Below are positions 1-14,334 of a stretch of 14,334 bases of DNA, one piece after another. Within the stretch, counting starts at the first letter, position 1; the number at the start of each line of letters is the position of its first letter. The notes beneath the pieces were generated by a model. That model made no database searches. It saw only the letters and a program-made list of their open reading frames with translations, and had not been told where the DNA came from. Source of the DNA: a virus; UHGV virus genome UHGV-2204358; one strand, written 5' to 3'. Position numbers and translations under genes: made by a program.

Positions 1-441
1 CTGGAAAGGCTGGGCCATACTCCTCCGGCAGAAGCAGAAAAAGCTTATTATGCTTCCATCGGAAACGATGATCTGGCAGCCTGAGTTCACAGATAAAATA
101 CTCTCCAGGAAACCCGGGGCGGTTCAGTGCTGGGAAGTCTGCGAATTAGAGAAAGCGTAAGCAAGATTGGGGGGAAAATCGGTAAACGTTTGGGCCATGA
201 AAAACAATGGTCACTACACGACCTTAGAAGAACGCTATCTACTCATCTAAGTGATCTCGGTGTTGAATTTTATGTAGTAGAACAACTGTTAGGCCATGCG
301 CTACCTGGCGTGGCGGGTGTTTACAACCGGAGTAAGTTTATGGCTAAAAAACTGGATGCTCTGGAACTCTGGACTACATATCTCAATAGCATCGCAGGTG
401 CTGATTCAAAAGTGACAATCCTCAAACAAAAGGCTGGTTAA
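1..441 (+). pseudogene. P4-type tyrosine integrase, C-terminal catalytic region only (ORF 127..441 from GTG); upstream reading frame interrupted, so probably a truncated or frameshifted integrase remnant
   Basis: Translation 127..441 shows the tyrosine-recombinase C-terminal signature (HDLRRT ... LLGHALPGVAGVYNRSKF). In-frame stops at 82-84 and 94-96 prevent upstream extension. Frame 2 upstream contains LSRKPG, which may be the displaced preceding integrase segment. Confidence 0.6.
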
Positions 442-442
442 C

Positions 443-673
443 ATGAAAAAAATGGCAATTGTTGATAAAAAGGGTCTGGAGTACATTCCTAACATCGATC
501 GTATGATCCGTGAGAAAGAATGTCGGGAGCTAACCACTCTTGCGAACAGCACACGCTGGAAGCTGGAGAAGGAAGGAAAATTTCCTAAGCGGATCAAGAT
601 TGGTTCCACTGCTGTTGCATATCGTCTTTCAGAAGTGCAGGCATGGATTCGAGGTGAGTGGGAAACGACTTAA
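443..673 (+). CDS. alpA: AlpA-family phage transcriptional regulator / excisionase-like HTH protein
   Basis: 76 aa ORF starting 2 nt after the integrase stop. Motif ELTTLANSTRWKLEKEGKFPKRIKIGSTAVAYRLSEVQAWI matches the AlpA (Phage_AlpA) helix-turn-helix pattern. Confidence 0.75.
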   Translation: MKKMAIVDKKGLEYIPNIDRMIREKECRELTTLANSTRWKLEKEGKFPKRIKIGSTAVAYRLSEVQAWIRGEWETT

Positions 674-2782: not shown

Positions 2783-3070
2783 ATGAAAAATAAATTTTCT
2801 GGCTTTATTGCCAGCGGTCAAACTCATTCAAAAATCAGCCTTGGGGATATTTTCAAAGACAGCTATGGCTATCGGGTAAAGATTATTTCGGTTGATGATC
2901 GTCGTGTCTCTTATTTGCGTGATGGTTATGATTTTGAATGTGTTATGCCGCGTCAGCAGTTCGAAAGAGATTTCATTCTGGTAAAAAATTGCAAGACAGA
3001 TAATCAGAGGCGTGCCGCAGGCTATATCCGTAAAATTCGGGCAATGTTAGTTGCCGGAGGTAACAAATGA
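2783..3070 (+). CDS. Hypothetical small protein, DUF4222-like
   Basis: 95 aa ORF with GGAGAA RBS. Pattern YGYRVKIISVDDRRVSYLRDGYDFECVMPRQQFERDF resembles DUF4222 prophage proteins (recalled, not searched). Confidence 0.55.
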   Translation: MKNKFSGFIASGQTHSKISLGDIFKDSYGYRVKIISVDDRRVSYLRDGYDFECVMPRQQFERDFILVKNCKTDNQRRAAGYIRKIRAMLVAGGNK

Positions 3071-4887
3071 AACGTGCTCCGAACTTAAAATACCAACCGC
3101 GCGACAAAATGACGGAAGTCATCATTTTTGCTGGCAGTGATGCCTGGAGCCATGCAAAAGAATGGAATGAATGGGCAGGTAAGCATATTGCAGCAGATGA
3201 TACACCACCAGTCATTCTGGGTACGGAACAACTGGAAAACCTGGATGATATGCAAATTATCGATGAAGGCCGTCATTATGTGCGTGTTTATCGTGCCGGA
3301 AAGATTGCAGAGAAAAGTCTGACGAAGGTTGCGACATTACTTGCTATTGCAGGCGTAAAGGAAGCACGTTGTTACCGTAGCTTTGTTGATCGAGAGCCTG
3401 AAGACTGGACTCCGCGCCTTGTCGGCCTAAAAGCTGAAGCGGAGCATGGGGAAAGTCTGGTGATTGAACTGCCAGTGAAGAAGGCAGAGCGCAAAAATGA
3501 CGAGCGTGCTTCATCTTTGGCGTTGAATCAGATGGGGGCCAGCCAGCGCGGTGAAGTTCTCCTTGCACATTATGGCGGTGAACTGGCAATCAATGCCGAC
3601 TCTGACACCGTTCATCATTACAACGGCGTTGTATGGGAGCCGGTTCAGGATAAAGAGTTACAGCGTGCTATGGCGCAGATTTTCATTGATGCGGAGATCA
3701 GCTATTCGCAGAACGCTATTAAATCGGCGGTAGATACCATGAAGTTAAGTTTGCCTGTAATGGGGAATACAGCCCGTAACCTGATTGGATTCAGTAACGG
3801 GGTATTTGATACCAGAACTGGTAATTTTCGGGAGCATAACAAAAACGACTGGTTGTTAATTGCCAGTGAATTACCTTTCAGCCCACCAGCAGAGGGGGAA
3901 ACGCTGGCAACACATGCGCCGAATTTCTGGAAGTGGTTGCGCCGTTCGGTGGCTGAGAATGACCGCAAGGCAGATCGCGTACTGGCGGCATTATTCATGG
4001 TGCTGGCGAACCGGTACGACTGGCAGTTATTCATTGAGGTAACAGGGCCGGGGGGAAGTGGTAAAAGTGTGATGGCGGAGATTTGCACCATGCTGGCGGG
4101 TAAGGCTAATACAGTATCAGCAAGCATGAAGGCGCTGGAAGATGCAAGGGAACGTGCGTTAGTGGTTGGCTTTTCGCTGATTATCATGCCGGATATGACC
4201 CGCTACGCTGGTGATGGGGCAGGGATTAAGGCCATTACAGGCGGTGACAAGGTGGCAATTGACCCGAAACACAAAGCCCCCTATTCAACGCGTATTCCGG
4301 CAGTAGTGCTGGCGGTTAACAATAACGCCATGTCATTCAGTGACCGCAGCGGGGGGATCTCACGTCGTCGGGTGATATTCAATTTTTCGGAAGTTGTACC
4401 GGAGAACGAACGCGATTCGATGCTGGCGGAAAAAATAGAAGGTGAGCTGGCGGTAGTGATTCGTCATCTGCTTACACGGTTTGCTGATCAGGACGAAGCC
4501 AGACGCCTGTTATATGAGCAGCAGAAATCTGAAGAAGCACTGGCGATAAAGCGAGAGGGGGATTCGCTGGTGGACTTCTGCGGCTATCTCATGGCATCGG
4601 TAATGTGTGATGGCCTGTTAGTGGGTAATGCTGAAATTGTGCCATTCAGCCCACGCAGGTATCTCTATCATGCCTATCTGGCTTATATGAGGGCACATGG
4701 GTTTGGTAAACCTGTAACACTGACGCGCTTCGGTAAAGATATGCCGGGGGCAATGGCGGAATATGGCAGGGAGTATATGAAACGGAAAACGAAGCACGGT
4801 TTGCGTTCAAACGTGACACTGACGGAGGAATCAGAAGACTGGATGCCATCATGTGTATCGGTCACTAATGACGATAGCAAAAATTAA
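3067..4887 (+). CDS. Satellite replication protein: P4-alpha/D5-type primase-helicase (COG3378-like) with P-loop NTPase domain
   Basis: 606 aa ORF. Walker A motif VTGPGGSGKSV. Start ATG overlaps the previous stop (ATGA) with GGAGGT RBS. Followed immediately by an iteron array, the classic pri/rep-ori arrangement. Confidence 0.85.
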   Translation: MKRAPNLKYQPRDKMTEVIIFAGSDAWSHAKEWNEWAGKHIAADDTPPVILGTEQLENLDDMQIIDEGRHYVRVYRAGKIAEKSLTKVATLLAIAGVKEARCYRSFVDREPEDWTPRLVGLKAEAEHGESLVIELPVKKAERKNDERASSLALNQMGASQRGEVLLAHYGGELAINADSDTVHHYNGVVWEPVQDKELQRAMAQIFIDAEISYSQNAIKSAVDTMKLSLPVMGNTARNLIGFSNGVFDTRTGNFREHNKNDWLLIASELPFSPPAEGETLATHAPNFWKWLRRSVAENDRKADRVLAALFMVLANRYDWQLFIEVTGPGGSGKSVMAEICTMLAGKANTVSASMKALEDARERALVVGFSLIIMPDMTRYAGDGAGIKAITGGDKVAIDPKHKAPYSTRIPAVVLAVNNNAMSFSDRSGGISRRRVIFNFSEVVPENERDSMLAEKIEGELAVVIRHLLTRFADQDEARRLLYEQQKSEEALAIKREGDSLVDFCGYLMASVMCDGLLVGNAEIVPFSPRRYLYHAYLAYMRAHGFGKPVTLTRFGKDMPGAMAEYGREYMKRKTKHGLRSNVTLTEESEDWMPSCVSVTNDDSKN

Positions 4888-4900
4888 ACTTATGGAATAA

Positions 4901-5123
4901 CTGTTCACCACTGTTCACCCTGTCATAAATATCTTTTATATCAGTATATTATAGGGTGAACAGTTATTTATGAACTGTTCACCAAACTATTCACTGTTCA
5001 CCTTTTTGATTGTTTATTGAGCTTCAAGGGTGAACAGTGGTGAACAGTTGGTGAATAGTTTTTGTGAAACTGTTTACCCATTAACATTATGAATTAAAAG
5101 AGAAAATATCAAAAGGTGAACAG
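4901..5123. repeat. Iteron-type replication origin: at least 9 copies of 9-bp CTGTTCACC / GGTGAACAG in both orientations with AT-rich spacers
   Basis: CTGTTCACC at 4901, 4911, 4975, 4994. GGTGAACAG at 4955, 5029, 5039, 5115. Variants GGTGAATAG at 5050 and CTGTTTACC at 5070. Tandem pairs at 10-bp phasing. AT-rich stretch 4921-4954. Sits directly downstream of the primase-helicase gene. Confidence 0.7.
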
Positions 5124-5174
5124 ATGAAGGGTTAAAACGCAAAAATTTTAATTTACTGCTGTGAGATAAAGCCT

Positions 5175-5420
5175 ATGACAGCGAAGCACACAAAAAAATC
5201 ACAATCGCACGCCCTTGATTTGACGGAATACTGGTTAAGGGTGTCGATAAAAATCATCGACCGCAACGCCGGGGAAGGATACGCGAAAGCACATCCCGAA
5301 CTGATTAGCGCATTCATGACAACGGCGGCTGCAAACTTTGCCACTCTGACCGAACGGGAGATTGCTGAAGCGGAGGAAGTGACAACAATCAATATTAAGT
5401 CCGGAGAGCAGGCCGCATGA
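5175..5420 (+). CDS. Hypothetical protein (81 aa)
   Basis: ORF whose stop overlaps the start of the SSB-like gene (ATGA). No recognisable domain. Confidence 0.5.
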   Translation: MTAKHTKKSQSHALDLTEYWLRVSIKIIDRNAGEGYAKAHPELISAFMTTAAANFATLTEREIAEAEEVTTINIKSGEQAA

Positions 5421-5866
5421 CGGCGCAAATATCAGTTTACGGGCGGTCGGTGGACGACCCGCAGACAAAACAGACCAGCAAGGGCACCCCCATGACGTTG
5501 GCGCGTATGGCGGTATCACTGCCCTGCAGTCAGTCGGATGACGGTCAGGCGACGATGTGGTTATCTGTCCTGGCGTTTGGCAGACAAGCCGACGCGCTGG
5601 CAAAGCATCACAAAGGCGAACTCCTGAGCGTGGCGGGTAACATGCAGATGAGCCAGTGGACTGGACAGAACGGCGAAACGCGGCAGGGCTGGCAGGTTAT
5701 CGCAGACAGCGTAATCAGTGCGCGATCGGTGCGACCGGGCGGCAATAAAGGCCAACAGGGGCAGGCTACTGACGCACTGAACAGAGCAAAACAACAGGCA
5801 GATCAGCAAGGAAGCCAGCCACCAGTGGGAGATAATGAGCAATGGGGAGATGATATCCCGTTTTAA
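5417..5866 (+). CDS. ssb: SSB-like single-stranded DNA-binding protein with conserved C-terminal acidic DDIPF tail
   Basis: 149 aa. OB-fold-like N-terminal region (ISVYGR...TMWLSVLAFGRQA...GNMQMSQWTGQNGETRQGWQVIADSV), Gly/Gln-rich linker, and the protein ends in WGDDIPF, the hallmark SSB C-terminal tip. Confidence 0.75.
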   Translation: MTAQISVYGRSVDDPQTKQTSKGTPMTLARMAVSLPCSQSDDGQATMWLSVLAFGRQADALAKHHKGELLSVAGNMQMSQWTGQNGETRQGWQVIADSVISARSVRPGGNKGQQGQATDALNRAKQQADQQGSQPPVGDNEQWGDDIPF

Positions 5867-5885: not shown

Positions 5886-5909
5886 GCCGGAAAAAATAAA
5901 TTTTCCGGC
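5886..5909 (+). terminator. Stem-loop (GCCGGAAAA AATAAA TTTTCCGGC) after the SSB-like gene; probable intrinsic terminator
   Basis: 9-bp inverted repeat seen directly, 20 nt after the stop at 5866. Separates the replication operon from the capsid-gene pair. Confidence 0.45.
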
Positions 5910-6083: not shown

Positions 6084-7124
6084 ATGGTTGATTTATATTC
6101 GCCTACTCAGCTTGTACAGGTGGTTAATGCTGTAGATGTACAAAAAAAATTAAATGCGTTGTTTACCAGTTTGTTTTTCACTCGCTCGGTAATGTTTGAA
6201 TCGAGAGACATTATTCTTGATACGATCGACGATCCAAATATCCCGATCGCGGCGTTTTGCTCTCCTATGGTGGGCAGTAAAGTTTCACGAGATGAGGGAT
6301 ACGAATCAAAAACAATTCGTCCAGGTTATATGAAGCCGAAAAGCAGCATTGATCCAAATAAGTTAGCTGTGCGCCCTGTTGGTGTGTCACCTGAGCAATA
6401 CAATGCTTTTGGGGCGCGTAATATTAAAGTTAAACAGGCGATTGTAAATCAGGCTAAAGCTATTCGTGCACGTATTGAATGGCTTGCTGTTCAGGCAATC
6501 ACAACGGGGAAAAATATCATTGAGGGCGATGGTATTGAACGTTATGAGCTGGACTGGAATATAAAACCACAAAATATCATCACTCAGTCTGGCGGTACTG
6601 AGTGGTCAGGTAAGGATAAAGAAACTTTTGATCCAAATGATGATATTGAGAGCTACGCAGAATTTAGTGAGGGCGTCACTAATATCATCATTATGGGTGG
6701 TAATGTATGGAAGAAATACCGTTCATTCAGAGCGATAAAAGAGGCTTTGGATACCCGTCGTGGTTCTAATTCCGAACTGGAAACGGCCCTTAAAGACCTT
6801 GGTGATTCGGTGAGTTTTAAAGGGTATATGGGCGATGTTGCGATTGTTGTTTACAGCGGGCGTTATACCGACGAGGACGGAACAGAAAAACATTTCCTTG
6901 ATCCTGATTTGATGGTGCTTGGCAATACGGCTCTTCAGGGGATTGTCGCCTATGGCGGTATTCAGGATCCGGAGCTAATCCGAATGGGGCTGACTAAAGC
7001 CGAACTTGCACCGAAAAACTATATTGTGCCTGGTGATCCGGCTATTGAATATGTGCAGACACATTCAGCACCACAGCCAATACCGGCCCGCATCAATCGT
7101 TTTGTTACCGTTCGCATTGGCTAA
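6084..7124 (+). CDS. Lambda gpE-like major capsid protein homolog (Phage_cap_E family), diverged copy encoded by the island
   Basis: Translation aligns along its length with lambda gpE (GYMKPK, ITQSGGTEWS, DTRRGSNSELETA, AIVVYSG), at roughly half identity by eye to the prophage E copy at 9861..10649. Start placed at ATG 6084 (AAGAGG RBS, matches the gpE N-terminus MVDLYSPTQL). The track start at 5910 gives an unsupported N-terminal extension. Confidence 0.85.
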   Translation: MVDLYSPTQLVQVVNAVDVQKKLNALFTSLFFTRSVMFESRDIILDTIDDPNIPIAAFCSPMVGSKVSRDEGYESKTIRPGYMKPKSSIDPNKLAVRPVGVSPEQYNAFGARNIKVKQAIVNQAKAIRARIEWLAVQAITTGKNIIEGDGIERYELDWNIKPQNIITQSGGTEWSGKDKETFDPNDDIESYAEFSEGVTNIIIMGGNVWKKYRSFRAIKEALDTRRGSNSELETALKDLGDSVSFKGYMGDVAIVVYSGRYTDEDGTEKHFLDPDLMVLGNTALQGIVAYGGIQDPELIRMGLTKAELAPKNYIVPGDPAIEYVQTHSAPQPIPARINRFVTVRIG

Positions 7125-7133
7125 GGGGGAGCA

Positions 7134-7475
7134 ATGGCTACTCATTACACTGAACTCATGGCTGGCACTGAAGCACTGGTGACTACGCTGGGGATATTTT
7201 CAGCTAATAAAGGGGTAATTCCTGCATTTACGCCACTGATGCAGGAAGATGCAACAGGTGCACTGGTGGTATGGGATGGTTCGAGCGTAGGTAAAGCGGT
7301 TTATGTTTCCGCTGTACAAATCGACACCGCGAAAAAAACACAGGCTCAGGTCTATAAGACAGGTGTCTTAAATGTTGATGCTCTGAACTGGCCTGAGTCT
7401 GTTAAAGAACTGTCAGTAAAGGTTGCAGCGTTTGTTGGCTCAGGTATTTCTGTTCAGCCGCTGGCTCGTGTGTAA
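7134..7475 (+). CDS. Lambda gpD-like head decoration protein homolog
   Basis: 113 aa. TPLMQEDATGALVVWDGSSVGKAV ... WPE ... AFVGSGISV parallels lambda gpD ([25 protein letters not shown] ... WPE ... AFAGTAISIV). Strong RBS AAGGGGGAG. Confidence 0.75.
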   Translation: MATHYTELMAGTEALVTTLGIFSANKGVIPAFTPLMQEDATGALVVWDGSSVGKAVYVSAVQIDTAKKTQAQVYKTGVLNVDALNWPESVKELSVKVAAFVGSGISVQPLARV

Positions 7476-7486
7476 AGGGGGATACA

Positions 7487-7870
7487 ATGCAGAATGATTA
7501 CAATGACCTTAAGCCAATTGCCGAAATGATGTACCCGAATCCAGCTGTAGAGGAATTAAAAGCTATCGCTGACAAAATGTGTTTAAGCGAGCGCCTTGTT
7601 GATATGAATCAGGTGATGGAAATTACAACCCTGAGTCGTCGTACACTGCTAAACCTTGAGGCTAGTGGAGAGTTCCCGGAGCGTGTGCAGGTTACGGAAG
7701 GGCGTAAGGCCTGGTATTTAAGTGAAGTGATCGACTGGATAAATAATATTCCTCGCGCTTCTGAATATTGCCGCGTACCTGTCCCAAAAAAGCCAGATGC
7801 GGCGCTATGCCTCAAGATTGAGCGTGTACGCCGCAATGCACGGGATGGTCGCTATAAGCTGATTGGTTGA
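7487..7870 (+). CDS. Second AlpA/Vis-like HTH DNA-binding protein (127 aa)
   Basis: Central segment MNQVMEITTLSRRTLLNLEASGEFPERVQVTEGRKAWYLSEVIDWI matches the AlpA-family HTH pattern. RBS AAGGGGGA. Confidence 0.6.
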   Translation: MQNDYNDLKPIAEMMYPNPAVEELKAIADKMCLSERLVDMNQVMEITTLSRRTLLNLEASGEFPERVQVTEGRKAWYLSEVIDWINNIPRASEYCRVPVPKKPDAALCLKIERVRRNARDGRYKLIG

Positions 7871-8795
7871 TGAAATTAGGGCCCGCTCTGGCTGGCGGGT
7901 CCTTTCCGGCGATCCAGAACGTTACGGGGCGTCAGGCGCGCAGTTTTTCTCTATTTATGGAAATTTTCCGGTTTAAGGCTTTTCCGTTCTTCTTCGCCGT
8001 AACTTTATGTTTTTATTTAAAATACCCCCTGAAAAGAAAGGAAATGACAGGCGCTGAAAACGGGCTTTTTGGCCTCTGCCGTTTCCTTTCTCTGATTTTG
8101 TTGCTGTTTGTCACGGCCTATCGCCAGAAAAAACTCTCATGCTTGCGTTGAAATCAGGCTCTACACTAAAGTAGTCGATAACGCGCCACTGGCTTCACTT
8201 TATGGTCGTGGCCTACTTCTGCACTATCGCAACAGCCTTACGAGTCCTGCTGGTAAGCTGTTGAGTAAGCAGAATACGGATTACAGGGCATCCTATGCGT
8301 ATTGTGGCGGATCGAACACAACCGCTCAGGTGAAACCCGTTTCGTTACTATTATAGGAAAATCTTCATACCCAACTTGCTTGATAACTTCTTCTGGTTGT
8401 TTTAACCATGTAGAGATGATATTTCCCTGAAAAATTGCTTTCCCTCTGACTAGATGCGCATACCACATTTTGTCTTCGACATAGAACCGCGCAGAAATGA
8501 TTACTCCACAGATACGGTTCTTTCGTCAATTCATTATGGAATGGGCTCAAAAGGGAGAGCTCAACAATAAAGTTCTGGTAGGATAATTGTATGCTTACAA
8601 TTGTAATGAAAGGAGAGTTAGAGCCTGGTGTGATTCTGTGTGTAAAATTTTAGCAAATTACGTTTAATTAAGTGTCGTAACACACCATGCCTGTCAGATA
8701 TTACGCTTATCATAGAGTGTATGATATTGCTTTTCTAAACAATAAGCTGTTATATTTTATGGGTATTGTGTTTAATTTTTAATGACGGCTCTAAC

Positions 8796-9731
8796 ATGAC
8801 CCCTGATGCAGTTTTGATTGCTAAAGCAATACTAATGTTGAAAGCAGATGTTGATTATACAAAAGATTATGTATTCCCTATTGCATTATCTTTTTTATCG
8901 GCGCTTATGGGAGGCTTAACTGCTTATTGCATCAATAATAGGCAGGAGAAGATTAAAATAGAAACGGAGAAATTTAATTCTGCTAATACGCTTATGATGG
9001 TTTCTTTTCAGATGATAAATACACTTGTGGGAATTAAAAGTAGTTATATTGGTTTGAGATCTAGAAATCCAATATTAAGAGCGCTGGCAATAAATGAATT
9101 TTTATTTAACGCCGGGGAGGTAAATTTCGATATTAGCCGTCTTTCATTTATAAAAAAGATACCCACAGCTAATAAATCTCTATTTGAGAGGTTTGTTTTT
9201 TTTATTAAGTACAAGATACTAAAACATGAACTTATTATGCCGTCAGATGAAGAAATTGGAAAGTCATGGAGGAATATTGCTCGAATTGATGCTTTTTTGT
9301 TTAATTATAATTTTGTTTTGAAAAGTTTAATTGTCAGGAATCAGCTTGATTCAGATTTAAAGAAACGTTTGTCTAATATTGCCAGTAAAGACAAGCCAGT
9401 GTTTGAAATTAAATTGGATGAAATAAAGAAAGAAATTGGTGCTAGTGAGTTGTCAAAATATATTGATTTGACAGAAAGTATAGTGGCGTTGATCGATTAT
9501 CTCATAAGGGAAATTGATTCATTTATTATGGAGTTCCCGAAGGTAGCGGAAAGTAATATTGAGTTATCTAAGGTGAATAAAGCTAAATTATCAACAATTG
9601 TTCTCAATAAGCCAGCATATTTGGCTGCATTGATTCCAATTCCACAACCTGACTTTGAATTAGTATCTTTACTAGTGGGTATGAGCCCAGAAGAAGCAAA
9701 GCAAAGATATTCGTATTCTGGTTGGCACTAG
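8796..9731 (+). CDS. Hypothetical AT-rich protein with a predicted N-terminal transmembrane helix; function unknown
   Basis: Long ORF (track 8766..9731 from TTG; ATG at 8796 preferred). Hydrophobic segment VFPIALSFLSALMGGLTAYCI. Strongly AT-rich, unlike the flanking DNA. No recognisable domain. Confidence 0.6.
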   Translation: MTPDAVLIAKAILMLKADVDYTKDYVFPIALSFLSALMGGLTAYCINNRQEKIKIETEKFNSANTLMMVSFQMINTLVGIKSSYIGLRSRNPILRALAINEFLFNAGEVNFDISRLSFIKKIPTANKSLFERFVFFIKYKILKHELIMPSDEEIGKSWRNIARIDAFLFNYNFVLKSLIVRNQLDSDLKKRLSNIASKDKPVFEIKLDEIKKEIGASELSKYIDLTESIVALIDYLIREIDSFIMEFPKVAESNIELSKVNKAKLSTIVLNKPAYLAALIPIPQPDFELVSLLVGMSPEEAKQRYSYSGWH

Positions 9732-9860
9732 TAGATATAGTGACATACCTTTGCGAAGCGCTGTATTGCTACGTGTATTGCTTTTTAGCTGTATTTTGAT
9801 AGAGAGAGCCATTTATTTCATTAAAAATCATTCAGTTCCTTTCATATTTGACTCATGTAA

Positions 9861-10649
9861 CCCAAGCATGAGGTGAATCCGCAGATGACCCTGCGTCGCC
9901 TGCCGGATGAAGATCCGCAGAATCTGGCGGACCCGGCTTACCGCCGCCGTCGCATCATCATGCAGAACATGCGTGACGAAGAGCTGGCCATTGCTCAGGT
10001 CGAAGAGATGCAGGCAGTTTCTGCCGTGCTTAAGGGCAAATACACCATGACCGGTGAAGCCTTCGATCCGGTTGAGGTGGATATGGGCCGCAGTGAGGAG
10101 AATAACATCACGCAGTCCGGCGGCACGGAGTGGAGCAAGCGTGACAAGTCCACGTATGACCCGACCGACGATATCGAAGCCTACGCGCTGAACGCCAGCG
10201 GTGTGGTGAATATCATCGTGTTCGATCCGAAAGGCTGGGCGCTGTTCCGTTCCTTCAAAGCCGTCAAGGAGAAGCTGGATACCCGTCGCGGCTCTAATTC
10301 CGAGCTGGAGACAGCGGTAAAAGACCTGGGCGAAGCGGTGTCCTATAAGGGAATGTATGGCGATACGGCGATCGTCGTGTATTCCGGACAGTACGTGGAA
10401 AACGACGTCAAAAAGAACTTCCTGCCGGACAACACGATGGTGCTGGGGAACACTCAGGCACGCGGTCTGCGCACCTATGGCTGCATTCAGGATGCGGACG
10501 CACAGCGCGAAGGTATTAACGCCTCTGCCCGCTACCCGAAAAACTGGGTGACCACCGGCGATCCGGCGCGTGAGTTCACCATGATTCAGTCAGCACCGCT
10601 GATGCTGCTGGCTGACCCTGATGCGTTCGTGTCCGTACAACTGGCGTAA
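9861..10649 (+). pseudogene. E: Lambda major capsid protein E, 5'-truncated (lacks about the first 80 codons)
   Basis: Translation from 9861 (PKHEVNPQMTLRRLPDEDPQ ... FVSVQLA) is near-identical to lambda gpE from about residue 80 to the C-terminus. A TAA stop at 9858-9860 and unrelated AT-rich DNA lie immediately upstream. The only in-frame start is GTG 9873. Confidence 0.8.
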
Positions 10650-10651
10650 TC

Positions 10652-10678
10652 ATGGCCCTTCGGGGCCATTTTCTCTCT
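10652..10678 (+). terminator. Stem-loop ATGGCCC-TTCG-GGGCCAT followed by TTTCTCTCT between E and FI; probable partial terminator or attenuating hairpin
   Basis: 7-bp perfect stem with a TTCG tetraloop and a downstream T-rich tract, 3 nt after the E stop. Confidence 0.4.
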
Positions 10679-10690
10679 GTGGAGGAGTCC

Positions 10691-11089
10691 ATGACGAAAG
10701 ATGAACTGATTGCCCGTCTCCGGTCGCTGGGTGAACAACTGAACCGTGATGTCAGCCTGACGGGGACGAAAGAAGAACTGGCGCTCCGTGTGGCAGAGCT
10801 GGAAGAGGAGCTTGATGACACGGATGAAACTGCCGGTCAGGACACCCCTCTCAGCCGGGAAAATGTGCTGACCGGACATGAAAATGAGGTGGGATCAGCG
10901 CAGCCGGATACCGTGATTCTGGATACGTCTGAACTGGTCACGGTCGTGGCACTGGTGAAGCTGCATACTGATGCACTTCACGCCACGCGGGATGAACCTG
11001 TGGCATTTGTGCTGCCGGGAACGGCGTTTCGTGTCTCTGCCGGTGTGGCAGCCGAAATGACAGAACGTGGCCTGGCCAGAATGCAATAA
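10691..11089 (+). CDS. FI: Lambda FI (DNA-packaging / head assembly protein)
   Basis: MTKDELIARLRSLGEQLNRDVSLTGTKEELALRVAELEEELDD... matches lambda gpFI. GGAGGAG RBS before ATG 10691. The track ORF starting at 10652 is over-extended. Confidence 0.85.
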   Translation: MTKDELIARLRSLGEQLNRDVSLTGTKEELALRVAELEEELDDTDETAGQDTPLSRENVLTGHENEVGSAQPDTVILDTSELVTVVALVKLHTDALHATRDEPVAFVLPGTAFRVSAGVAAEMTERGLARMQ

Positions 11090-11100
11090 CGGGAGGCACT

Positions 11101-11454
11101 GTGGCTGATTTCGATAACCTGTTCGATGCTGCCATTGCCCGCGCCGATGAAACGATACGCGGGTACATGGGAACGTCAGCCACCATGACATCCGGTGAGC
11201 AGTCAGGTGCGGTGATACGTGGTGTTTTTGATGACCCTGAAAATATCAGCTATGCCGGACAGGGCGTGCGCGTTGAAGGCTCCAGCCCGTCCCTGTTTGT
11301 CCGGACTGATGATGTGCGGCAACTGCGGCGTGGAGACACGCTGACCATCGGTGAGGAAAACTTCTGGATAGACCGGGTTTCGCCGGATGATGGCGGAAGC
11401 TGTCATCTCTGGCTTGGGCGGGGCGTACCGCCTGCCGTTAACCGTCGCCGCTGA
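11101..11454 (+). CDS. FII: Lambda FII (head-tail joining protein)
   Basis: MADFDNLFDAAIARADETIRGYMGTSATMTSGEQSGAVIRGVFDD... matches lambda gpFII. GTG start with GGGAGG RBS. Confidence 0.85.
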   Translation: MADFDNLFDAAIARADETIRGYMGTSATMTSGEQSGAVIRGVFDDPENISYAGQGVRVEGSSPSLFVRTDDVRQLRRGDTLTIGEENFWIDRVSPDDGGSCHLWLGRGVPPAVNRRR

Positions 11455-11465
11455 AAGGGGGATGT

Positions 11466-12044
11466 ATGGCCATAAAAGGTCTTGAGCAGGCCGTTGAAAA
11501 CCTCAGCCGTATCAGCAAAACGGCGGTGCCCGGTGCCGCCGCAATGGCCATTAACCGCGTTGCTTCATCCGCGATATCGCAGTCGGCGTCACAGGTTGCC
11601 CGTGAGACAAAGGTACGCCGGAAACTGGTAAAGGAAAGGGCCAGGCTGAAAAGGGCCACGGTCAAAAATCCGCAGGCCAGAATCAAAGTTAACCGGGGGG
11701 ATTTGCCCGTAATCAAGCTGGGTAACGCGCGGATTGTCCTGTCCCGACGCAGGCGTCGTAAAAAGGGGCAGCGTTCAGCCCTGAAAGGTGGCGGCAGCGT
11801 GCTTGTGGTGGGAAACCGTCGTATTCCCGGCGCGTTTATTCAGCAACTGAAAAATGGCCGGTGGCATGTCATGCAGCGTGTGGCCGGGAAAAACCGTTAC
11901 CCCATTGATGTAGTGAAAATCCCGATGGCGGTGCCGCTGACCACGGCGTTTAAACAAAATATTGAGCGGATACGGCGTGAACGTCTTCCGAAAGAGCTGG
12001 GCTATGCGCTGCAGCATCAACTGAGGATGGTAATAAAGCGATGA
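11466..12044 (+). CDS. Z: Lambda Z (tail completion protein)
   Basis: MAIKGLEQAVENLSRISKTAVPGAAAMAINRVASSAISQSASQVARETKV... matches lambda gpZ. Confidence 0.85.
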   Translation: MAIKGLEQAVENLSRISKTAVPGAAAMAINRVASSAISQSASQVARETKVRRKLVKERARLKRATVKNPQARIKVNRGDLPVIKLGNARIVLSRRRRRKKGQRSALKGGGSVLVVGNRRIPGAFIQQLKNGRWHVMQRVAGKNRYPIDVVKIPMAVPLTTAFKQNIERIRRERLPKELGYALQHQLRMVIKR

Positions 12045-12436
12045 AACATACTGAACTCCGTGCAGCCGTACTGGATGCACTGGAGAAGCATGACACCGGG
12101 GCGACGTTTTTTGATGGTCGCCCCGCTGTTTTTGATGAGGCGGATTTTCCGGCAGTTGCCGTTTATCTCACCGGCGCTGAATACACGGGCGAAGAGCTGG
12201 ACAGCGATACCTGGCAGGCGGAGCTGCATATCGAAGTTTTCCTGCCTGCTCAGGTGCCGGATTCAGAGCTGGATGCGTGGATGGAGTCCCGGATTTATCC
12301 GGTGATGAGTGATATCCCGGCACTGTCAGATTTGATCACCAGTATGGTGGTCAGTGGCTATGACTACCGGCGCGACGATGATGCGGGCCTGTGGAGTTCA
12401 GCCGATATGACTTATGTCATTACCTATGAAATGTGA
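12041..12436 (+). CDS. U: Lambda U (tail terminator protein)
   Basis: [54 protein letters not shown]... matches lambda gpU. Start overlaps the Z stop (ATGA). Confidence 0.85.
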
Positions 12437-12443
12437 GGACGCT

Positions 12444-13184
12444 ATGCCTGTACCAAATCCTACAATGCCGGTGAAAGGTGCCGGGACCACCCTGTGGGTT
12501 TATAAGGGGAGCGGTGACCCTTATGCGAATCCGCTTTCAGACGTTGACTGGTCGCGTCTGGCAAAAGTTAAAGACCTGACGCCCGGCGAACTGACCGCTG
12601 AGTCCTATGACGACAGCTATCTCGATGATGAAGATGCAGACTGGACTGCGACCGGGCAGGGGCAGAAATCTGCCGGAGATACCAGCTTCACGCTGGCGTG
12701 GATGCCCGGAGAGCAGGGGCAGCAGGCGCTGCTGGCGTGGTTTAATGAAGGCGATACCCGTGCCTATAAAATCCGCTTCCCGAACGGCACGGTCGATGTG
12801 TTCCGTGGCTGGGTCAGCAGTATCGGTAAGGCGGTGACGGCGAAGGAAGTGATCACCCGCACGGTGAAAGTCACCAATGTGGGCCGTCCGTCGATGGCAG
12901 AAGATCGCAGCACGGTAACAGCGGCAACCGGCATGACCGTGACGCCTGCCAGCACCTCGGTGGTGAAAGGGCAGAGCACCACGCTGACCGTGGCCTTCCA
13001 GCCGGAGGGCGTAACCGACAAGAGCTTTCGTGCGGTGTCTGCGGATAAAACAAAAGCCACCGTGTCGGTCAGTGGTATGACCATCACCGTGAACGGCGTT
13101 GCTGCAGGCAAGGTCAACATTCCGGTTGTATCCGGTAATGGTGAACTTGCTGCGGTTGCAGAAATCACCGTCACCGACAGTTAA
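12444..13184 (+). CDS. V: Lambda V (major tail tube protein with C-terminal Ig-like domain)
   Basis: [50 protein letters not shown]... matches lambda gpV. GAGGA RBS before ATG 12444. The track start at 12414 is over-extended. Confidence 0.85.
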
Positions 13185-13199
13185 TCCGGAGAGTCAGCG

Positions 13200-13622
13200 A
13201 TGTTCCTGAAAACCGAATCATTTGAACATAACGGCGTGACCGTCACGCTTTCTGAACTGTCAGCCCTGCAGCGTATTGAGCATCTTGCCTGGTTGAAAGA
13301 GCAGGAAAAAAAGGCTGAATCCAGTGGCAACCTGCAGGTGTCTGTAGAGGCGCTTATCAGAGGCGGGGCGTTTCTGGTGGCGATGTCTCTGTGGCATAAC
13401 CATCCACAGAAGACAAAGCTGCCGTCCATGAATGAAGCCATTACGCAGATTGAGCAGGAAGTGCTTACCACCTGGCCCACGGAGGCAATTGCTCAGGCTG
13501 AAAACGTGGTGTTACGTCTGTCCGGAATGTCTGAGTTTGTGGTGAATAATGCCCCTGAACAGGCAGAGGACGCCGGGCCTGCAGAGCCTGTTTCTGCGGG
13601 AAAGTGTTCGACGGTGAGCTGA
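13200..13622 (+). CDS. G: Lambda G (tail assembly chaperone)
   Basis: MFLKTESFEHNGVTVTLSELSALQRIEHLAWLKEQEKKAESSGN ... SAGKCSTVS matches lambda gpG. Confidence 0.85.
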   Translation: MFLKTESFEHNGVTVTLSELSALQRIEHLAWLKEQEKKAESSGNLQVSVEALIRGGAFLVAMSLWHNHPQKTKLPSMNEAITQIEQEVLTTWPTEAIAQAENVVLRLSGMSEFVVNNAPEQAEDAGPAEPVSAGKCSTVS

Positions 13623-14038
13623 GTTTTGCCCTGAAACTGGCGCGTGAGATGGGGCGACCCGACTGGCGCGCCATGCTTGCCGGGATGTCATCCACGGAGT
13701 ATGCCGACTGGCACCGCTTTTACAGTACCCATTATTTTCATGATGTTCTGCTGGATATGCACTTTTCCGGGCTGACGTACACCGTACTCAGCCTGTTTTT
13801 CAGCGATCCGGATATGCATCCGCTGGATTTCAGTCTGCTGAACCGGCGCGAGGCTGACGAAGAGCCTGAAGATGATGTGCTGATGCAGAAAGCGGCAGGG
13901 CTTGCCGGAGGCGTTCGTTTTGGCCCGGACGGGAATGAAGTTATCCCTACTTCCCCGGATGTGGCGGACATGACGGAGGATGACGTAATGCTGATGACAG
14001 TATCAGAAGGGATCGCAGGAGGAGTCCGGTATGGCTGA
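13200..14038 (+). CDS. GT: Lambda G-T tail assembly chaperone fusion made by programmed -1 ribosomal frameshift (T portion 13604..14038 in the -1 frame)
   Basis: Slippery heptamer G GGA AAG at 13598-13604 near the end of G. The -1 frame continues as VFDGELSFALKLAREMGRPDWRAMLAGMSS..., matching lambda gpT, and ends at TGA 14036-14038. Confidence 0.7.
13598..13604 (+). other. Programmed -1 frameshift slippery site GGGAAAG
   Basis: Heptamer present in the G frame (codons gcG GGA AAG), exactly where lambda G-T frameshifting occurs. Confidence 0.7.
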
Positions 14039-14334
14039 ACCGGTAGGCGATCTGGTCGTTGATTTGAGTCTGGATGCGGCCAGATTTGACGAGCAGATGG
14101 CCAGAGTCAGGCGTCATTTTTCCGGTACGGAAAGTGATGCGAAAAAAACAGCGGCAGTCGTTGAACAGTCGCTGAGCCGACAGGCGCTGGCTGCACAGAA
14201 AGCGGGGATTTCCGTCGGGCAGTATAAAGCCGCCATGCGTATGCTGCCTGCACAGTTCACCGACGTGGCCACGCAGCTTGCAGGCGGGCAAAGTCCGTGG
14301 CTGATCCTGCTGCAACAGGGTGGTCAGGTTAAGG
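14031..14334 (+). CDS. H: Lambda H tape measure protein, N-terminal part (continues beyond window end)
   Basis: ATG 14031. Translation MAEPVGDLVVDLSLDAARFDEQMARVRRHFSGTESDAKKTAAVVEQSLSRQALAAQKAGISVGQYKAAMRMLPAQFTDVATQLAGGQSPWLILLQQGGQVK matches the lambda gpH N-terminus. No stop before the window end. Confidence 0.85.
   Translation, partial: MAEPVGDLVVDLSLDAARFDEQMARVRRHFSGTESDAKKTAAVVEQSLSRQALAAQKAGISVGQYKAAMRMLPAQFTDVATQLAGGQSPWLILLQQGGQVK

Follow-up and report, generated by a model that had tools for sequence, protein, structure and literature searches.

The window analyzed here, i.e., the whole 14,334-nt stretch of DNA from UHGV virus genome UHGV-2204358, contains two adjacent genes (6084-7475) whose products are related to the lambda major capsid protein gpE and head-decoration protein gpD, and which are referred to below as E-like and D-like. 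Sequence comparison indicates that the element carrying them is almost certainly a Gram-negative phage-inducible chromosomal island (PICI), namely a near-identical copy of the helper-embedded PICI (HE-PICI) 11capE, inserted at about codon 82 of a lambda-like gene E, with the pair as its late-zone capsid module. The most likely way in which the pair works, put forward here only tentatively, is that it may provide a satellite-supplied shell subunit and a matched cement protein; the explanation as a whole (identity of the element plus capsid/cement mechanism) is given a probability of roughly 60%. The element is already known, as the gene pair was published in 2018 and the island type at this site in 2023, and the genes are annotated in RefSeq. 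What the present analysis adds is that the pair forms a satellite-specific lineage, is under purifying selection, and keeps a constant E-then-D order at several integration sites.

Capsid and decoration genes

6084-7124, plus strand: PICI major capsid protein of the lambda gpE/HK97-fold family, homolog of c1499; 346 amino acids (aa), Pfam Phage_cap_E
7134-7475, plus strand: PICI head-decoration (cement) protein of the gpD/SHP family, homolog of c1500; 113 aa, Pfam HDPD

The E-like protein matched the Pfam Phage_cap_E profile with an E-value of 9.4e-41 (140.4 bits, profile positions 4-327 of 329) and could be aligned end to end with solved capsid proteins, including 3BQW (3.4e-121, residues 8-345) and the lambda gpE structure 7VI9 (1.9e-77, residues 12-345), gpE being of the same length. 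The deposited chain of the 3BQW crystal structure is identical to c1499 of the island EcCICFT073 over all 351 residues; the E-like protein is 55% identical to c1499 and 42% identical to lambdoid E. Similarly, the D-like protein matched Pfam HDPD (E-value 4.5e-15, 56.3 bits), the SHP protein of phage 21 (1TD0, 4.7e-16) and lambda gpD chains (about 1e-11), and is 54% identical to c1500 and 38% identical to the D protein of the helper prophage. A full-length, diverged gpE homolog directly followed by a gpD homolog, as claimed in the original prediction from the letters alone, was thus borne out, and both scores in the profile search proposed there as a check lie above the curated Pfam cutoffs (22.9 bits for Phage_cap_E and 29.1 bits for HDPD). 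The boundaries of both genes are those given in RefSeq for the homologs in two Escherichia coli loci with a near-identical island (L001 and L002), and a Shine-Dalgarno sequence, AGAGGA, lies 6 nt ahead of the E-like ATG. The order of the two genes is also the inverse of that in lambda, as had been stated: all helper prophages examined have D and then E. Two database proteins, P0004 (463 aa) and P0079 (470 aa), combine Phage_cap_E and HDPD in one chain, and may be E-D read-through fusions or artefacts of sequencing or gene calling.

The pair is directly followed by a third gene:

7487-7870, plus strand: second AlpA-family helix-turn-helix gene (AlpA2), third gene of the E-D-AlpA2 block; Pfam Phage_AlpA, 7.6e-9

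Since the gaps between E-like, D-like and AlpA2 are only 9-11 nt and each gene has a strong ribosome-binding site, the three genes look like one operon. The idea that E and D form their own terminator-bounded unit was not supported: the sole T-run hairpin in the vicinity (5886-5909) belongs to the minus strand by its score, nothing resembling a terminator follows gene D, and the number of terminators in the window is not above that in shuffled sequence. AlpA2 (127 aa, with N- and C-terminal extensions) occupies the slot of c1501 and RppA in EcCICFT073 and is conserved as the third member of the block in at least seven genera, following E-D in Serratia, Kluyvera, Superficieibacter, Cedecea, Kosakonia and an E. 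coli PICI at the clpS locus. It was also considered as an Rpp homolog, which was rejected: it has no similarity to RppA, and its sole relative in PDB is an AlpA-family protein.

Insertion of the island in a helper capsid gene

9859-9868, plus strand: right attachment site (attR) core AACCCAAGCA, a 10-bp identity block, followed by in-frame E codons from about 84 to 341
9869-10649, plus strand: 3' part of the helper major capsid gene E from about codon 84 (open reading frame (ORF) 9873-10649, 258 codons)
10652-14334, plus strand: helper genes FI, FII, Z, U, V, G, T and the start of H (head completion and tail), according to the L001/L002 annotation, 96-98% identical

Because the window holds the 3' part of E and then FI to T, the island must be inserted inside a helper capsid gene, which had been overlooked before. 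This part of E covers positions 94-328 of the 329 in the Phage_cap_E profile, and is annotated in RefSeq as "major capsid protein, missing N-terminus" for L001, L002 and the published 11capE locus of E. coli NRG857c (L052). The AACCCAAGCA core is present at both island ends, at 9131 and 20347 in L001 (11,216 bp apart) and at a distance of 11,077 bp in 11capE. In both loci, the left attachment site follows E codon 82 or so, and the island is co-oriented with the lambda-like prophage. In L001, L002 and L052, the upstream side consists of Nu1, A, W, the portal gene (B), the S49 protease gene (C), D and the first 82 or so codons of E, and the downstream side of the rest of E and the tail genes up to J. 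When the island is removed, gene E is in frame again. Moreover, a query across the left junction was matched in full in 173 of 5,426 complete E. coli genomes, while about 3,000 matched only up to the attachment site, corresponding to an uninterrupted E.

These data bear on whether the two genes are simply part of an ordinary prophage head module, the scenario that the original prediction had named as its own refutation. Portal, protease and terminase genes are indeed adjacent in related genomes, together with a D gene and the two parts of E. However, they are the helper's and not the island's: the pair lies inside an 11.2-kb unit that is bounded by the duplicated 10-bp core and carries int, alpA, pri, ori and ssb, and the helper has a D gene of its own whose product shares only 38% of residues with the D-like protein. 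The attachment-site boundaries and the empty sites refute this scenario, which can practically be dismissed, and the assignment of the pair to a satellite stands.

A doubled GTATTGC motif was observed on the island side of both attachment sites, at 9763 and 9775 beside attR of the window and at 9263-9290 and 20247-20275 in L001. HE-PICIs have been described as having a doubled motif (arm-type integrase sites) and a 10-bp block (PMC10111431), and the GTATTGC pair probably represents the former. Membership in the HE-PICI integrase clade was assessed by identity rather than by phylogeny: the 104 surviving integrase codons are the same as in L001, and the int-alpA DNA is 99.3% identical to that of 11capE.

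Relationship to previously described PICIs

Tommasini, Mageeney & Williams (2023) described 11capE as an 11-kb PICI that disrupts the capsid gene E of prophage 50icd and has its own capsid gene, and observed its excision and replication (PMC10111431). According to the same source, 201 elements belong to its site group (E:Phage_cap_E_80) and 290 to 13 other prophage late-gene sites. The island in the window is 98-99% identical in DNA to 11capE, and is therefore not the undescribed system that it had been taken for. Besides the insertion point, the 10-bp attachment core and a variant cosN, the two share two stretches of DNA at 98.4-99.3% identity, namely int-alpA and the part between the Icd-like gene and cos, and identical residues at 343 of 346 positions of E, 112 of 113 of D and all 127 of AlpA2. 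They differ in the integrase, which is cut by an IS3-family insertion sequence (IS) in the window, in the variable zone (663-2406), and in the cargo slot (8101-9825), which holds an orphan 321-aa ORF here and HEPN and DUF262 genes in 11capE; in addition, in the E. coli genomes nearest the window, the prophage with the island is at a Qin-like locus, not at icd. Since its integrase is cut, the window copy probably cannot excise, so that the helper gene E would stay split.

The premise that known satellites encode either no capsid or a full head module also did not hold. A capsid gene was reported in 21 of 29 reference Gram-negative PICIs (PMC10111431), and Fillol-Salom et al. (2018) had already described c1499 (capsid) and c1500 (head decoration) in EcCICFT073 (PMC6092414). 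This island has the same layout as that in the window (int-alpA-...-DUF4222-pri-ori-hyp-ssb-E-D-...-cos, hyp being a hypothetical gene), the same E-then-D order, and proteins of the same satellite-specific clade. It differs in being chromosomal (roxA/phoQ) and not helper-embedded, and in having c1501, RppA (c1503) and two canonical cosN sites after E-D, where the window has AlpA2 and one variant cosN.

Capsid-forming PICIs (cf-PICIs, e.g., EcCIEDL933) share the PICI backbone (int, alpA and pri) and an own capsid protein with the present island. However, they encode a full set of capsid protein, protease, portal, connectors, HNH, TerS and TerL, whereas the present island carries only E and D and therefore should still rely on the helper portal, protease/scaffold and terminase. 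The likeness to Sid and Psu of P4 is functional only: these are also satellite proteins acting on a helper-type capsid, and Psu is also a decoration protein, but neither is a homolog of a capsid protein or of gpD, and the small capsids of P4 are made from the capsid protein of its helper.

Satellite-specific lineage and selection

In Escherichia, Cedecea, Scandinavium, Serratia, Edwardsiella, Salmonella and Lelliottia, the identity of homologs to the E-like protein declines without a gap from 99% to about 52%; the next group, that of the phage-type E proteins, reaches 44% at most. In a comparison with 50,697 phage records, lambda itself matched best (42.6% for E and about 40% for D), and a recent capture of the pair from a phage was rejected on account of these low values. 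All-against-all comparison gave mutual identities of 51-97% for PICI E proteins and 38-46% to helper E, and of 43-98% for PICI D proteins and 29-39% to helper D. Clade-specific motifs were found along the whole PICI capsid protein. The ratio of nonsynonymous to synonymous substitution rates (dN/dS) was 0.08-0.13 for E and 0.09-0.15 for D, as read from the closer, unsaturated pairs only (synonymous sites are saturated between distant lineages), which shows the pair to be under purifying selection. Both ORFs are intact in all loci examined.

The E-then-D order was kept across five or more integration sites and no fewer than eight genera of enterobacteria. PICIs with the pair are located at roxA/phoQ (CFT073 and O157:H7), fis (Serratia and Lelliottia), cspD/clpS (E. 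coli) and inside gene E (E. coli, Cedecea and Kosakonia); the pair also occurs in Kluyvera and Superficieibacter. In Edwardsiella tarda (MBLV01000009.1), such an island lies in the portal gene of a lambdoid prophage that has its own intact D and E. A scan of species-representative genomes with the PICI capsid alignment yielded four loci; as its peptide patterns were narrow and derived, these add genera and do not constitute a census. Many islands have a second AlpA-family gene and a cos site directly after E-D. The sub-lineage of the window was present in 395 of the 5,426 complete E. coli genomes (at least 80% coverage). In 36 IMG/VR contigs, the E-D-AlpA2-cos block had 95-100% protein identity, while the primase module ranged from about 34% to 100% and one integrase was at 53%. 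Comparison of the window with the clpS-locus PICI of E. coli (10996-12387 of that locus) gave a synonymous divergence (dS) of 1.39 for E (84% aa identity) and 0.27 for D (95%), a contrast that points to a recombination breakpoint between or within the two genes.

It could be supposed that the pair is a neutral passenger, i.e., a leftover of late-gene capture from a helper prophage with no current function. The only deletion experiments gave no phenotype (PMC6092414), and PICI late zones are known to capture helper genes, sometimes with a reversed segment order around the attachment site (PMC10111431); as a speculation, the E-then-D order may reflect an old capture across this site. This supposition is nevertheless very unlikely in view of dN/dS values of 0.08-0.15 with intact ORFs and an order kept across so many genera and sites, of the strong conservation of the E-D-AlpA2-cos block in the IMG/VR islands next to a much more variable primase module, and of the lack of a known phage source above 43% identity.

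The cos-like region

7895-8100, plus strand: cos-like region, 89% identical to the cosQ-cosN-cosB region of the helper prophage (blastn and alignment)

A search for the lambda cosN core with up to two mismatches gave no match in the window. The reading that the island has no cos was then rejected, as blastn with the helper cos revealed a variant core. The 12-nt cosN core at 7927-7938 is GGGCGTCAGGCG, whereas that of the helper is GGGCGGCGACCT; five of the 12 positions are changed, and the right flank differs as well. The same variant is present in 11capE, whose helper has the canonical core, and in the 36 IMG/VR contigs, where it invariably comes right behind E-D-AlpA2 and in no case serves as the cos of a phage itself; no mention of it was found in the passages of PMC10111431 that were consulted. 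The canonical core occurs in four chromosomal PICIs (E. coli CFT073, O157 and the clpS-locus island, and Kluyvera), and still other variants in the Superficieibacter and Kosakonia islands, both of which have their own Nu1-like terS. Neither a terS nor an Rpp homolog was found in the island of the window.

Right after cos, a Nu1-like small terminase gene was observed in some sister islands, namely those on the IMG/VR contigs L013, L017, L038 and L041 and those of Superficieibacter (L049) and Kosakonia (L051); its identity to that of the helper is 70-71% in E. coli and 39-51% in Kosakonia and Superficieibacter. In addition, the Lelliottia island at fis has an S49 protease gene after E-D. The sister islands with terS or the protease form a graded series towards fuller head modules.

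Possible function of the pair

In the proposed model, E-like serves as a functional shell subunit with the HK97 fold, and D-like as the trimeric cement protein matched to it; binding of the D-like trimer to the expanded capsid lattice would be expected from homology and from its co-divergence with E-like. The E-D-AlpA2 operon would be transcribed from the island's own AlpA-activated operon and/or by Q-antiterminated late read-through from the helper. The two proteins would use the portal, scaffold and protease of the helper to form lambda-sized shells, into which its terminase would package DNA via the adjacent cos site, and D-like would stabilize the shells holding phage-length concatemers. 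In this way, the satellite might gain a capsid supply that is independent of helper E, which would be weightiest in the embedded state, when helper E is split until excision, and might depend less on the capsid gene of any single helper. The module would be dispensable in the presence of an intact helper E, as with lambda and phi80 in the laboratory, and the lack of a phenotype in that setting is compatible with the model but does not prove it. Both late read-through and a role as a "backup intact copy" have been proposed before (PMC10111431).

This proposal is favored because the pair is conserved, selected and co-diverging, and because a decoration protein is of use only once the shell of its partner has been assembled and has expanded. 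The cognate D gene beside E would also imply that E-like does form shells and that these take up DNA almost to full density. Neither a poison of assembly nor a size factor would need a cement protein of its own, and both are disfavored for this reason.

Redirection of capsid size, with E-like co-assembling with the helper capsid protein or taking its place to give small shells that fit an 11-kb island and exclude the helper genome, was the first role suggested in the original prediction. The model for it is Ccm of the staphylococcal cos satellite SaPIbov5, which, like E-like, is a satellite-encoded homolog of the HK97-fold capsid protein of the helper; in addition, the Pasteurella island PmCI172 has a capsid homolog and makes small capsids (PMC6092414), and the present island of about 11.2 kb is roughly a quarter of its helper. 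Ccm comes without a partner decoration protein. Furthermore, Ccm gives small capsids and helper block, whereas the tested E. coli homolog gives neither: EcCICFT073, whose capsid protein is the 55%-identical homolog, was found in phage-sized capsids, all DNA packaged with lambda was phage-sized, and redirection was ruled out by the authors (PMC6092414). For Gram-negative PICIs of this kind, the packaged form is a phage-length concatemer (PMC10111431). E-like also has the same length as gpE with end-to-end alignment, and a cognate cement protein, which in lambda matters for near-full heads, has been kept. A role in size redirection is thus improbable.

The second suggested role was interference or defense, in which E-like and D-like, as poison subunits, would become built into the capsids of the helper or of superinfecting lambdoid phages and ruin them. 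PICIs commonly interfere with their helpers, E-like, with 42% of its residues shared with lambda E, might still be taken up into lambda capsomers, and the module lies near the variable cargo slot that holds HEPN and DUF262 genes in sister islands. However, deletion of c1499 or c1500 did not relieve the interference with lambda (PMC6092414), and the interference that persists in EcCICFT073 is explained by Rpp (PMC6739421). Although these deletions were made with Rpp present, so that a redundant effect is possible, a poison has no need of a co-diverging decoration partner, and purifying selection over the whole length together with the clade-specific pattern fits a structural role better. Interference is therefore considered unlikely.

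Several observations also weigh against the proposed shell and cement function. The pair is not required with an intact helper E, because deletions of the homologs c1499 and c1500 (55% and 54% identical) gave no phenotype: lambda interference was unchanged in either deletion, and a c1499::cat island was transferred at high frequency with lambda, phi80 and the native helper (PMC6092414). Virions of 11capE/50icd could not be detected (PMC10111431). The cosN core of the island is unlike that of the helper at five of 12 positions, which makes packaging by the resident helper less secure, and the window copy, with its broken integrase, may be an immobile relic. The Edwardsiella island has E-D while the E and D of its helper are intact, so that backing up a split E cannot in general account for the module. 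Neither the E nor the D protein of a PICI is known from any particle.

A further idea, which is decidedly unlikely, is that E-D-AlpA2-cos represents a self-contained module of "own shell plus own ends", in which a satellite embedded in gene E would knock out the helper capsid protein, put a non-interchangeable capsid/cement pair in its place, and have cohesive ends (GGGCGTCAGGCG) unlike those of the helper. If this were true, shells made before excision would be of the satellite type and reproduction of the helper would need excision of the satellite; in integrase-less copies such as that in the window, the prophage would be permanently dependent on the satellite capsid genes. A question of wider interest is why a satellite lineage keeps its own capsid and cement genes under purifying selection despite phenotype-free deletions. 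The embedded state with a split helper capsid gene is the natural setting for this question, and the E-D-AlpA2-cos block and the altered cosN offer handles on it.

Other features of the island

1-123, plus strand: 3' end of an IS3-family element (transposase C-terminus and terminal inverted repeat), truncating the island integrase gene
127-441, plus strand: PICI tyrosine integrase, last 104 codons (intact form 411 aa); Pfam Phage_integrase
443-673, plus strand: alpA (PICI activator/excisionase family); Pfam Phage_AlpA, 3e-15
658-2000: variable ("Bro/dynamic") zone, with a DUF2971 protein at 658-1512 on the plus strand (Pfam) and a SWIM zinc-finger protein at 1644-2000 on the minus strand (RefSeq, L001)
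2783-4887, plus strand: replication module, with a DUF4222 protein at 2783-3070 and a D5-type primase-helicase at 3067-4887 (Pfam D5_N, DUF5906 and Pox_D5)
4896-5125: replication origin with about 10 GGTGAACAG(T) iterons in both orientations (repeat search)
5417-5866, plus strand: single-stranded DNA-binding protein; Pfam SSB, 5.9e-15
8766-9731, plus strand: cargo ORF, 321 aa, low GC content (30-34%); no Pfam or PADLOC match

The hallmarks on which the element had been called a satellite were confirmed, as AlpA, the D5-type primase and the single-stranded DNA-binding protein were identified by Pfam and the iterons by the repeat search. The layout is that of Gram-negative PICIs, with int leftmost, co-oriented alpA and pri, an iteron origin, no large terminase, portal or tail genes, and a length (11,216 bp in L001) within the usual 10-20 kb or so. 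The synteny of the replication module is the same as in EcCICFT073, and the mapped origin of Gram-negative PICIs is also 3' of pri (PMC6092414), matching the position of the iterons here.

The integrase had correctly been recognized as a remnant, and the cause is the insertion of the IS3-family element that ends at about position 123. The surviving codons are identical to residues 308-411 or so of the L001 integrase, with the break at about codon 307. Positions 1-127 match the ends of two IS3-family copies in CFT073 at 99% identity, and the first 120 nt or so of the window occur at thousands of places in about 4,100 E. coli genomes; the junction between IS and int was present in no complete E. 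coli genome of the collection.

An Rfam scan for the C4/isrK immunity RNAs of some PICIs gave nothing at the gathering score, and a PADLOC scan of the cargo ORF, the DUF2971 and SWIM proteins and AlpA2 gave weak matches only (E-values of 5e-5 or higher, at most 20 bits). The cargo ORF lies in the variable slot at 8101-9825 beside attR, which is occupied by HEPN and DUF262 genes not only in 11capE but also in L001, and which looks like a variable accessory or defense hotspot.

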